DNA from: a virus
Virus genome (UHGV): UHGV-0177318
Strand: one strand, 5' to 3'
Length of the DNA stretch: 47,797 nucleotides
The stretch's first letter is position 1. Each line of letters begins with the position of its first letter. Position numbers: made by a program. This document shows positions 21,001 to 24,000 of the stretch, in pieces.

Positions 21001-24000
21001 GGTACAGGGGATAAACGATGGAGCTTCAATTATGATGGTTCCGCCACTTCTCAGGGGGCCTGGGTTAATGGTTCTGACGAGCGTCACAAGTCCAATATAA
21101 AGCCGGTGTCGACCCCACTAGCCGCCGTACTATCCATGCGTGGTGTCACGTATGACGTTCAGGATGGTGGTCGGGGTGTAGGACTTATTGCCCAGGATGT
21201 TGAAAATTGGTGTCCGGATGCCGTTAAGACATATGGAGATCGTGAATTCAGTGATGGCACTGTGATTGAGAATTTCAAATTTCTCGACACATCAGGCGTG
21301 TCTGCCGCATACCACACCGAAGCAATCAAAGAACTTTTTACCCTGGTGGAACTGGTACTTATCGATCCGGAAAAAGCACGTGATGTAATCAACGTGGTTA
21401 AAGAAGCCACTAAGCCTAGCCAGTCAGGTTTGTAAACAATACTCAGGCATCTAACAAGTAAAACGCCGCCCATCGCATGCAAGAATTTGCGGCGGCTAAA
21501 ATCTGCTCATTAAGAGTTACTGCCATAAAATTTACAAAACTCATAATTCGAAACGACATAGAAACTTAGAAACGAAACGGCGAAGCTTTAAGCATTCATC
21601 ACAGACCCTCTGTCTTGCGTGCATACTCAAATGAAACTACTGTATATAAAAACAGTGTTTGAGGTATGCAACATGGAATTTATCAGGCCTGCAGAACTGC
21701 GAGAAATTATAGCTCTCCCGCTTTTCAGTGACTTAGTGCAGTGTGGTTTCCCAAGCCCAGCGGCTGATTACGTTGAACAGCGCATCGATCTCAATGAGTT
21801 ACTTGTTGCTCACCCGAGCTCAACGTATTTCGTCAAAGCCGCGGGCGATTCTATGATCGAAGCCGGGATCAGCGACGGTGATCTGCTGGTAGTGGACAGC
21901 TCCAGGACTGCTGAGCATGGTGACATTGTCATCGCTGCGGTGGAAGGGGAGTTCACTGTTAAACGCCTGCAGCTGCGCCCGAACGTGCAACTAAACCCTA
22001 TGAACAGCGCCTACAGTCCGATAGTTATTGGCTGCGAAGATACGCTGGACGTTTTCGGCGTCGTGACTTTCATCGTTAAATCGGCGAGCTGAACATGTTC
22101 GCGCTCTGTGATGTGAATTCGTTCTACGCATCATGCGAGACGGTGTTTCGGCCTGATTTGAGGGGGCGCCCGGTTGTCGTTCTCTCGAATAATGATGGCT
22201 GCGTAATTGCGCGCAGCGCCGAGGCCAAAGCCGCCGGAATTACCATGGGTGAGCCTTTCTTCAAGCAAAAGGAGCTTTTCCGGCGCGCTGGCGTTGTTTG
22301 CTTCAGCAGCAATTACGAGCTGTACGCTGATATGTCGAACCGGGTAATGACGACGCTGGAAGAAATGAGCCCTCGCGTCGAAATATATAGCATCGATGAA
22401 GCTTTTTGCGACCTTACTGGTGTTCGAAACTGCCGGGACCTGACAGAGTTTGGCAAAGAGATCCGCGCGACGGTTCTGAAGCGTACGCACCTGACTGTCG
22501 GGATTGGCATCGCGAAAAGTAAGACCCTTGCAAAGCTGGCAAATCACGCCGCCAAAAAATGGCAGCGTCAGACGGGCGGAGTTGTTGATTTGTCCAATAT
22601 CGATCGCCAGCGTCGGTTGTTGGCTATTGTGCCTGTGGAGGACGTATGGGGCGTCGGCAGGCGCATCAGTAAGAAGCTGAACGCCATGGGCATCAAAACG
22701 GCTCTGGACCTCTCAGAACAAAGCACATGGATTATCCGTAAACACTTTAACGTGGTACTCGAGCGAACGGTCCGGGAGTTGCGCGGCGAGCCTTGTCTTG
22801 ATCTGGAGGAGTTTGCACCAGCTAAGCAGGAAATCGTCTGCAGTCGGTCATTCGGTGAACGCGTTACCGAATACGAACAGATGCGGCAGGCTATTTGCAG
22901 CTATGCGGCGCGTGGTGCTGAAAAGCTTCGCGGCGAACATCAGTATTGCCGTTTTATCTCTGCGTTCGTGAAGACGTCACCTTTTGCCCTGAACGAGCCG
23001 TATTACGGCAACAGCGCGTCAGTGAAGCTTCTCACCCCCACTCAGGATTCCCGCGACATCATCAACGCCGCGGTAAAGTGCCTGGACAAAATCTGGAAGG
23101 ATGGGCACCGCTATCAAAAGGCTGGAATTATGCTGGGAGATTTTTTCAGTCAAGGGGTGGCACAGCTGAACCTTTTCGATGAGCACGCGCCGCGCGCTGG
23201 AAGCGATAAGTTGATGGATGTGCTCGATCACTTGAACGCGAAAGAAGGGAAAGGAACACTCTTCTTTGCCGGGCAGGGCATTCAACAGCAGTGGCAGATG
23301 AAGCGGCAGTTGCTTTCACCCCGATATACTACTCGCATATCAGATTTATTAATTGTGAAGTAAAAAGGCTGCTTAACGCAGCCTTTTTAGTTAATTAAGC
23401 AGCTTTTTTCTCGCTGCATTTGCAATGAGGGATAACAAAAACTTTCGCCTTTTTAGGGCGGATGATTTTACCATCCTTCATTACATAGGGCGTGAAGGTT
23501 ACTTCACACGAATTCCCACATTTTGGACAATAGCCAGTTTTCATGTGAGATCTCCTATGTAAATGTACAGCCTGTAAATCTAAACAGATTGCACCTTGTT
23601 AGGAGAACCACTATACTTTTAGCCGTCAAGCATTTTGTGTAGCGGTAGATTTCTCCATACACACCGAGTTATGCGTCAACATAGCTCGCCCCCTAAGAAG
23701 CCCTGCGTCAACAGGGCTTTTTTCAATAAAATTCAAAGCAAAGCTGTGCTGTTTGATAGCCCAATTTATCGAGCATCGTTTCTGCGAAAAGATCCGCCTG
23801 CCATTCAGAATCTTCATTTTGTTCCGGCATGGCATTCGCAAAGTGTAAGGCTGGCTTATGTTGTAGTAGCAAGTGCCCGAGCTCATGGAATATAACAAAT
23901 AACGCTGATCGTTCACCGCCACATGCCATTTCATAGATATGGTTTGGAACCCTGATAGTCAGTTTGTCAGGTTCACAGTGTCCAATCGTTAGACCCAGCG

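Follow-up and report, generated by a model that had tools for sequence, protein, structure and literature searches.

In the plasmids of the I-complex, the antisense RNA RNAI meets its target stem-loop, SLI, through a kissing interaction, and nucleotides of the loop and of the interior loop set the specificity of recognition (PMC10724649). A long structured 5' region has been implicated in translational control at the divergent type I toxin–antitoxin loci tisB/istR-1, dinQ/agrB, zorO/orzO and shoB/ohsC; at symE/symR, an antisense RNA encoded in cis, with its promoter in the 5' region, blocks the synthesis of a LexA-controlled non-membrane protein, and at ralR/ralA, in the rac prophage, a small non-membrane protein is controlled by a small RNA (sRNA) (PMC4147584). 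CapH/CapP, ImmR/ImmA and DdrO/IrrE are repressor–protease modules that derepress their neighbours after DNA damage (bioRxiv 10.1101/2022.04.27.489752; PMC10904395). Here, we analyze a locus in the virus genome UHGV-0177318, over a stretch of 47,797 nucleotides (the window), in which a 49-codon open reading frame (ORF; 23395-23544, − strand) is separated by a 178-nt spacer from a gene for an ImmA/IrrE metalloprotease (23723-24205, − strand). The original prediction had combined the ORF, a LexA box and a divergent promoter–terminator unit into an SOS-linked pair of a small protein and an sRNA resembling tisB/istR; the ORF and the divergent unit are conserved together in every branch and the box in 44 of 48 distinct relatives, and to that extent the proposal holds, but a TisB-like peptide and specific pairing in trans were not found. 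The spacer is instead one conserved, structured RNA module of the sense strand, and not an sRNA gene followed by a spacer. We propose, with a confidence somewhat short of even, that the locus represents an undescribed and widespread class of prophage sense/antisense leaders, in which a LexA operator would be read twice, as a DNA operator and as an RNA kissing hairpin, and in which paired, fast-evolving loop alleles would be the specificity determinants; the leaders would gate at least two unrelated families of Cys/His-rich proteins of 44-49 amino acids (aa), which would be SOS-triggered effectors or toxins of a new, non-membrane kind.

About 200 loci were gathered by protein or by leader DNA pattern, from Enterobacter, Pantoea, Providencia, Klebsiella, Rheinheimera, viral contigs and metagenomes. 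The structure statistics refer to 48 distinct leaders (group A); groups B and C are not alignable to group A and are too divergent for RNAalifold. The roughly 180 nt that precede the ORF are non-coding but conserved, also in loci in which another gene takes the place of ImmA. Four helices (H1, H2, H5 and H4) and a hairpin at the LexA box are 92% paired in the 48 leaders (95.8% for the box hairpin), as against at most 48% with slid partners; 14 pairs are changed on both sides, compared with 6.8 ± 1.4 in shuffles (0 of 500 reaching this number), and RNAalifold, without guidance, recovers H1, H2, H5, H4 and the box hairpin. H5 (GGAGAA/UUCUCC) and H4 (ACCGCUACAC/GUAUAGUGGU) build a long hairpin (23602-23656, −) whose 3' arm carries a sequence complementary to the Shine–Dalgarno (SD) sequence of the ORF. 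Because the long hairpin contains the −10 element and the spacer of the + strand promoter described below, its formation requires a sense (ORF-strand) transcript. One of its pairs (114-147 of alignment A3) is GC in 20 leaders, GU in 14, AU in 11 and AC in 2, and in divergent relatives H5 is replaced wholesale yet remains complementary (GGUUAAC/GUUAACC, CUGUAACC/GGUUACAG, GGGGAU/AUCCCC). The polarity of the wobble pairs in H4, H5 and the box hairpin, 66 G-U against 19 A-C, favours the ORF strand, and so does the RNAalifold score of the long-hairpin region (−8.84, as against −2.47 for the opposite strand). H2 (23665-23688), in which 7 of 9 pairs are changed on both sides, has no such polarity (16 G-U, 16 A-C); its loop, CGTCAA on the + strand and UUGACG on the − strand, is the same as that of H1. 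Within the leader, the SD region is bound most strongly by the 3' arm of the long hairpin (−9.2 kcal/mol, versus −4.7 kcal/mol for other leader windows), and in the minimum free energy fold of the window sequence the SD pairs with UCUCCUA of this arm. Two other candidates were tried and rejected: a helix H3 (GUGUA/UACAC) within the sRNA, which is only 68% paired, shifts register between subgroups and gave way to H4/H5, and a leader peptide (ATGGAG...), whose indels are out of frame. A covariance model built from 34 sequences matches the window once, at 23569-23722 (−) with 123.5 bits, and also finds relatives outside the model. Over the whole window there is no Rfam 15 match at gathering score, and relaxed Rfam thresholds applied to 23300-23800 return noise only (for example istR, with 13.2 bits where 45 is the gathering score); nor is the module described in the literature searched.

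Comparative analysis further shows a predicted pseudoknot in the sense leader, just upstream of the SD. Its 5' partner is the internal loop AAAUCUA (23646-23652, −), and its 3' partner the loop of the box hairpin, UAGAUUU (23576-23582, −), the exact complement of the former. Covariation links the 8-nt spacer of the LexA box to this internal loop, which lies 65 nt further upstream. Covarying pairs of box loop and internal loop include UGAAUU/AAUUCA, AUGAACU/AGUUCAU, UGGAUU/AAUCCA, UGGGUG/CACCCA, GGGUUU/AAACCC and GGGUAA/UUACC, among others. The contiguous run of complementarity averages 5.87 for cognate loops, with 30 of the 31 distinct combinations reaching at least 5, and 4.52 for non-cognate loops (0 of 5000 permutations). 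In alignment A4 the pseudoknot is 89.4% paired, 4 of its 6 pairs are changed on both sides (1.3 ± 0.8 expected) and the covariation score is 0.312 versus 0.146 (0 of 500); its wobble (G-U) pairs exist only in the ORF-strand reading. The same architecture is found without a LexA box in Rheinheimera, where AACCCAC/GUGGGUU is set in a CGCAAAU stem, and with non-LexA stems in group B (GGUCUC/GAGACC, GGACAC/GUGUCC, GGACUC/GAGUCC).

The box whose spacer enters the pseudoknot is a perfect CTGT-N8-ACAG, CTGTAAATCTAAACAG, at 23572-23587, where the original prediction had placed it just upstream of the ORF; on the − strand it is also an RNA hairpin with the stem CUGU/ACAG. It is kept in 44 of the 48 distinct relatives. 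The window holds five perfect sites of this form, against 0.53 expected, a number reached in none of 100 shuffles; the other four are at umuD, at dinI, beside the attP core and at a methylase gene, and those of umuD and dinI sit at textbook SOS positions. A second, degenerate LexA-like box with one mismatch, CTGTACATTTACATAG on the − strand (23555-23570), overlaps the SD. A second box begins 1 nt after the first in 10 of the 48 relatives; it is perfect in L043 and L044, and perfect again in the leaders of the second ORF family described below. The first box abuts the −35 of the antisense promoter, at a distance of 1 nt, and no conserved promoter of the ORF strand is seen at the box. In Pantoea, both half-sites are changed symmetrically to CCGT...ACGG, a change that keeps the RNA stem and very probably loses LexA binding. 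In most Enterobacterales, the box hairpin would therefore be read best as an RNA element that also has a LexA operator sequence.

The antisense unit lies on the opposite strand. Its predicted promoter, conserved among the relatives, consists of TTGCAC (−35, 23589-23594) and TATACT (−10, 23612-23617), 17 nt apart, as originally described, but the description "near-consensus" was too generous: the match is 8/12, with only 3/6 in the −35, and a consensus scan did not report the site. With a position weight matrix (PWM) the site scores 10.4 bits in the window, above the 95th percentile of 120-nt background windows (9.5 bits), and no other promoter is conserved in all 48 leaders, over which it averages 8.7 bits. 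The −10 is fixed at positions 1, 2 and 6 and the −35 at its TTG, even when the RNA partners of these bases are mispaired, and position 3 of the −10 is free; the invariant columns appear to follow a σ70 pattern and not a pairing pattern. In most members of groups B and C, TTGATA-17-TACCTT, TTGAAA-17-TATGGT or TTGATA-17-TAGTAT is found 35-47 nt before the ATG (8.6-13.8 bits; spacing of 16-18 nt, 17 in most). About 100 nt on, the hairpin plus T-run seen in the original prediction is borne out: H1 and its T-run (23698-23723; GCCCTG-CGTCAA-CAGGGC-TTTTTT at 23700-23723) form the intrinsic terminator of the predicted sRNA, abut the stop codon of ImmA and are 99.7% paired. The 8 nt that follow the H1 stem contain on average 5.4 T on the + strand and 3.1 on the ORF strand, and RNAfold gives −35.4 kcal/mol for 23622-23730 (+), with z = −4.9. 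The consensus scan also missed this terminator, probably through greedy extension of the stem into the flanking A/T runs. The sRNA delimited by these two predicted elements would be about 100 nt long (23624-23724, +). No conserved ORF lies between promoter and terminator, in agreement with what had been noted; the only ATG is in a hairpin stem and is absent from other alleles. The 5'-most 45 nt or so, for which RNAalifold shows no conserved structure, are the complement of the 5' arm of the long hairpin and of its internal loop. Full complementarity of the sRNA to the leader requires an mRNA start upstream of 23656, to which the covariation points. It is best read as a putative cis-antisense RNA to the structured leader, because the leader helices span the sRNA promoter and because the pseudoknot uses the spacer of the LexA box.

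The loops of H1 and H2 are identical to each other in 45 of the 48 leaders. At least 12 loop alleles occur in this set and several more in additional loci, the alleles of both together including UUGACG, CGCUAA, CUGAGAA, CUAGGAA, UUGGCA, CUUCGAA and UUUGCCG; matches between the loops of different alleles amount to 6 of 132. The alleles vary independently of XRE, ImmA and the small protein, and L065 and L067, one protein residue apart, have different loops. No third site complementary to the H1/H2 loops was found within about 1.2-1.5 kb. The loop alleles behave as would be expected, by analogy, of the kissing-loop specificity determinants of antisense systems.

The 49-codon ORF (MKTGYCPKCG...KKAA) is a real gene under purifying selection, judging from its pattern of substitution. 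As the original prediction had it, the ORF has a good ribosome-binding site (SD AGGAG, 23552-23556, −, 7 nt before the ATG), and the comparison with relatives, named there as a possible refutation, speaks for coding: the median dN/dS is 0.095 (369 pairs; 42 distinct 49-codon alleles), the entropy of the three codon positions is 0.58/0.56/1.27, the third being about twice the first and second, and the Cys residues are conserved. C6, C9 and C41 are invariant among homologues and C13 and C43 nearly so; C6, C9, C41 and C43 make a putative 4-Cys zinc ribbon. Word-indexed and exhaustive hidden Markov model searches of 1.8 billion representative proteins returned about 12 relatives, mostly of 44-60 aa, with the same Cys pattern. 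The AlphaFold2 model (pLDDT 79) is mostly β strand, with a small zinc-ribbon-like fold, and the protein is basic, Cys-rich and free of any hydrophobic segment. It belongs to no Pfam, PHROG, NCBIfam or PADLOC family; its sole Pfam match is a sub-threshold one to the treble-clef zinc finger zf_Tbcl_2 (17.3 bits, cutoff 27). Foldseek searches of PDB and BFVD with the model, and a profile search of PDB with the family, gave no significant analogue, the best fold or profile matches being generic zinc knuckles and eL24-like ribosomal proteins (E > 0.03). RalR belongs to the Lar zinc-ribbon family; the small protein has no match to Pfam Lar_restr_allev, and a second protein that was tested has no Pfam match. 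The protein has no similarity to Rep.

How these elements may work together can be put as a scheme to which we would give about an even chance: the ORF would be the distal cistron of an XRE–ImmA operon, an antisense sRNA would act on its pseudoknotted leader, and LexA would provide a second gate. The sense leader would arise by read-through from the co-directional upstream gene, here the XRE–ImmA operon, and it is this read-through that would make the small ORF a distal cistron; XRE–ImmA itself may be a DNA-damage-responsive pair like CapH/CapP. The sRNA (about 100 nt) would find the leader via the H1 and H2 loops, and its 5' tail would then pair with the 5' arm of the long hairpin and the internal loop. 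This pairing would break the pseudoknot and free the anti-SD (UUCUCC) to sequester the SD, turning translation off. At the level of DNA, LexA at the box and at the degenerate second box over the SD would form an SOS gate, possibly as a roadblock, possibly by repression of a weak internal promoter (GTGCAA followed by the box, as at dinI) or by acting on the abutting antisense −35. The protein could be a damage-induced effector in need of basal suppression, like the non-membrane type I toxins SymE and RalR; this is our preferred guess.

Several points weigh against this scheme. A PWM scan of the 48 leaders found no conserved σ70 promoter on the ORF strand within the leader, which is why we infer the origin of the sense RNA, and no conserved ORF-strand promoter for σ32, σ54 or σE was seen either, consensus patterns having been compared by eye only. 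H1 could terminate most sense transcripts. The repressive sign of the regulation by the sRNA would follow by analogy. A LexA operator within a transcribed leader is atypical, and the relatives in Rheinheimera and Pseudoalteromonas are without the box. The RNA hairpin, and not LexA, is the primary constraint on the box region, because Pantoea keeps the stem and because the Rheinheimera and Pseudoalteromonas relatives have no box. There is no conserved leader peptide of the repY/repB kind among the leaders, whose indels are not multiples of three. The identity of the H1 and H2 loops is accounted for only by calling them recognition loops, and the tandem copies in Providencia share one loop allele. 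For the small protein, finally, Pfam, Foldseek, PADLOC, NCBIfam and profile searches gave no toxin homology or fold match.

Some of the same observations can be read in other ways. A tisB/istR-type arrangement, in which the ORF mRNA would start at a LexA-repressed promoter at the box and a non-overlapping, divergent sRNA would repress it in trans by short, imperfect pairing to the SD or the 5' untranslated region, would agree with the divergent layout and with a LexA box between the two units. The box lies between a weak −35-like GTGCAA and the SD, a geometry like that of dinI, where TTGACA, the box and TAAAAA follow one another, and in group C the predicted promoters are divergent and overlapping and would yield non-overlapping transcripts. 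Moreover, the sRNA has a conserved CUCC anti-SD, and in the main subgroup its CCUCCAUAC pairs, over 5 + 3 bp, with GUAUGCAGG beside the SD, the cognate pairing having a mean of −12.7 kcal/mol against −9.8 kcal/mol in controls. This pairing, which the original prediction had put forward as a check, does not turn out to be specific: 21% of the control start regions pair equally well with the seed in the window, and a median of 17% of unrelated start regions do so overall; the full-length sRNA:mRNA duplexes have z-scores of about 0 (−1.4 to +1.7), a prediction made uninformative by long interior loops. Such an arrangement also leaves the covariation of H4/H5 and of the pseudoknot unexplained, since both require one sense RNA reaching across the promoter of the sRNA; at the box, an acceptable −10 is not conserved, and the protein is no hydrophobic peptide. 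We consider it unlikely. If, on the other hand, there were no functional sRNA, the structured leader, or intercistronic element, would act only in cis, H1 would serve to terminate transcription of the upstream gene, and the constraint on the RNA would have produced the + strand promoter as a by-product. Structure and polarity do favour the ORF strand, the promoter is an 8/12 match that the consensus scan left unreported, and RNAalifold shows no conserved 5' hairpin on the + strand. But promoter-like hexamers recur, at 8.6-13.8 bits, in most members of groups B and C, which are not alignable; the fixed promoter positions (1, 2 and 6 of the −10, TTG of the −35) do not change where the RNA partners are mispaired; a T-run comes after H1 only in the + strand reading (5.4 vs 3.1); and H2 lacks strand polarity (16 vs 16), as expected of a hairpin that works in both RNAs. 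A leader without an sRNA is thus rather improbable, and less probable than the trans-acting pair.

The role of LexA itself may also be questioned. CTGT-N8-ACAG could fail to work as a LexA operator and be no more than a stem in an RNA hairpin, leaving control to XRE/ImmA and to RNA. The hairpin and its loop pairing do persist where the box is missing (CCGT/ACGG in Pantoea, CGCAAAU/AUUUGCG in Rheinheimera), the spacer is constrained by RNA pairing and not by LexA, and no clear promoter overlaps the box. Set against this, the exact 16-mer, with its 8-nt spacing, is found in 44 of 48 relatives, a second canonical box that has no role in the RNA lies 1 nt further on in 10 of the 48 and in the second ORF family, and the window is enriched in boxes at bona fide SOS genes (umuDC, dinI). 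Spacers such as ATGAGTTT and ATGAATTT also resemble the recA box of Escherichia coli (ATGAGCAT), which argues in the same direction. A purely structural origin of the motif is, in our estimate, no likelier than the tisB/istR-type arrangement. The small protein might, lastly, be an SOS-induced prophage antirepressor of the 186 Tum or Gifsy type, with the RNA elements only tuning its synthesis, a role that the original prediction had also suggested. A LexA-boxed small gene in the accessory region of a prophage, near att and dinI, would suit such a function, and some copies adjoin the integrase gene or the end of the prophage. The phage CI repressor of the window (33391-34017), however, is made of HTH_3 and Peptidase_S24 domains and can cleave itself, so that an antirepressor is not required in this phage; the cassette changes position, from the b-region here to the nin region in E. 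coli; Pfam, PHROG and NCBIfam show no homology of the small protein to known antirepressors (186 Tum, Gifsy GfoA/GfhA); and an unrelated 44-aa ORF can take the place of the small protein behind the same leader. Of all these readings, we regard this one as the least probable, with very little chance of being right.

The leader appears to be a portable control unit. An upstream gene in the same direction ends at H1 in all loci examined, over at least five unrelated gene sets; the XRE–ImmA pair precedes the module in about two thirds of the loci and is absent from about one third of the copies. PADLOC matches of the upstream pair to capP (E = 1e-4) and capH (E = 2e-4) are both weak and far below the family thresholds. 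With the exception of one orphan, the covariance model finds the leader only beside small ORFs. The orphan (L177:4953-5104, −; 89 bits) has identical H1 and H2 loops (UUUGCAG), no LexA box and no small ORF. A second ORF family encodes an unrelated 44-aa Cys/His protein (MAHDVNRD..., MAHDVNRDNFIYEHDKPVYVRSYCRIRFGELEHVRQHFRSYPSC) behind the same leader, with two canonical LexA boxes; such leaders were seen in L086 (4671-4823, −), L110, L154 and L121, from Klebsiella and E. coli prophages in which the product is annotated as "hypothetical" only. In Providencia rustigianii (L004:3470-4135) the whole module, leader and ORF, is duplicated in tandem with 89% identity; the H1 stems of the two copies are compensatory (UCUUG/CAAGA and UCCUG/CAGGA), and the antisense −10 and −35 of copy 1 look degraded.

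The module is present in 49-56 of 5426 complete E. coli genomes, O55:H7 and O113:H21 included. The E. coli copies occupy the nin region beside hokD, have a strong terminator of their own after the ORF and carry no non-coding RNA annotation. One of them (L084; E. coli FDAARGOS_536, NZ_CP033762.1 632238-634172) reads hokD, XRE, ImmA, leader, small ORF, DUF968, rusA and Q, and PGAP annotates neither the small ORF nor the RNA. Because the E. coli copies lie in the nin region and that of the window in the b-region, the cassette is mobile within prophages. The ORF had been called unannotated; this is true of most RefSeq copies in E. coli, but not of the Klebsiella phage ST846-OXA48phi9.2, 96.7% identical, where it is annotated as "hypothetical protein". 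In the commonest variant of the locus (L046), a dinI-like gene and a gene for a 130-aa protein are found downstream of the small ORF (L046:4485-4877, +, and L046:3909-4142, +); the 130-aa protein resembles the N-terminal winged-helix DNA-binding domain of LexA and has no peptidase domain.

The window as a whole has a complete lambdoid phage layout, with structural genes up to about 21.4 kb followed by an accessory cluster, a tRNA-3'-half-like attP core and the integrase gene (26212-27405, −); early genes lie beyond CI. In the accessory cluster, umuD and umuC (21619-23363, +) precede the small ORF, with which umuC shares a bidirectional terminator (AAAAA-GGCTGC-TTAAC-GCAGCC-TTTTT, 23362-23388). 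On the other side of the leader, the ImmA/IrrE gene (Pfam Peptidase_M78, 28.7 bits) is preceded by the gene for the XRE repressor (24223-24582, −; Pfam HTH_3/HTH_31), for which the consensus promoter scan reported a promoter-like site at 24623-24650 (−); an SRAP/YedK-like gene (24682-25353, −) and dinI (25579-25818, −), whose promoter has the LexA box between TTGACA and TAAAAA, complete the cluster. The accessory region is themed on the SOS response, with umuDC, the SRAP/YedK-like gene and dinI side by side, and the LexA box of umuDC overlaps the −10 (TACTGT). In Klebsiella, the sRNA DinR is a processed product of the 3' untranslated region of the chromosomal dinI gene (PMC10907235). Two further boxes may be mentioned. 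The perfect box at 26132-26147 lies within a promoter-like TTGCAA-17-TATACA (−), just downstream of the integrase gene, that points across the attP core (26040-26085), in which no complete tRNA is detected by ARAGORN; a transcript from it would be under SOS control and cross the attachment site. The perfect box at 41964-41979 is at the very start of an N6/N4 DNA methyltransferase ORF (41954-43006, +), in the late or nin-like region.

The module thus adds a conserved structured RNA family outside Rfam, and two families of small proteins outside Pfam and NCBIfam, to the prophages of clinically relevant Enterobacterales, including Klebsiella, Enterobacter, E. coli O55:H7 and strains of the Shiga toxin-producing E. 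coli type; in most annotated genomes neither the ORF nor the RNA is recorded. The dual coding of the box, where the "free" spacer of an operator is fixed by RNA–RNA pairing, bears on the evolution and on the prediction of SOS boxes. In the model, three DNA-damage inputs, LexA, the ImmA/XRE protease switch and the antisense RNA, would act together on a single tiny protein. With its parallel loop alleles, the module is a natural setting in which to study antisense specificity and cross-talk among co-resident prophages.

How does the locus compare with the systems described? In its repressor–protease pair it resembles the CapH/CapP class, since an XRE protein and an M78 metalloprotease are encoded together, although the hits here fall far below thresholds; unlike that class, the pair is co-directional with the presumed output gene and not divergent from it, and it is a frequent partner of the cassette, not a defining part. 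With ralR/ralA, the locus has in common a prophage-borne small non-membrane protein that is, here by prediction, under sRNA control; RalA, however, pairs inside the coding region and needs Hfq, and ralR/ralA has no LexA box, leader pseudoknot or similar architecture. The likeness to symE/symR lies in the SOS link, the non-membrane protein and an antisense promoter inside the 5' region. SymR, however, overlaps the ribosome-binding site and the start codon, whereas the sRNA predicted here stops some 80 nt short of the ATG and would work by a structural switch; SymE, with 113 aa and an AbrB-like fold, has no homology to the protein described here. More generally, tandem copies, orphan RNA genes, sequestration of the SD and SOS control recall the type I toxin–antitoxin loci (PMC4147584).

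The comparison with tisB/istR, from which the original prediction set out, extends to a small ORF with a LexA box, a divergent sRNA gene alongside, here a predicted one, and a long structured 5' region. TisB, however, is a hydrophobic membrane peptide of 29 aa, while the protein here is basic and rich in Cys and has the look of a soluble one. Over 21 nt, IstR-1 is complementary in trans to the 5' untranslated region, whereas no specific complementarity in trans was found here; the predicted sRNA would instead be antisense over its full length to a leader whose start must lie upstream of the sRNA promoter. The closest mechanistic analogue would instead appear to be the pseudoknot/RNAI control of the I-complex plasmids. 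As in repZ/repA of IncI-alpha, IncB and IncK, a stem-loop of the leader pairs beside the ribosome-binding site to form a pseudoknot, and a short antisense RNA, predicted in our case, from a promoter internal to the leader is complementary to the stem-loop; the predicted sRNA at 23624-23724 includes the complement of the internal loop that enters the pseudoknot. The two systems differ in that there is no relationship in sequence or in Rfam and no leader-peptide coupling here, and in the output, a replication initiator in the plasmids and a 49-aa prophage protein in the present case. Unlike the I-complex leaders, the leader described here has two recognition hairpins with identical loops, and the distal partner of its pseudoknot is the loop of a hairpin formed by a LexA operator.

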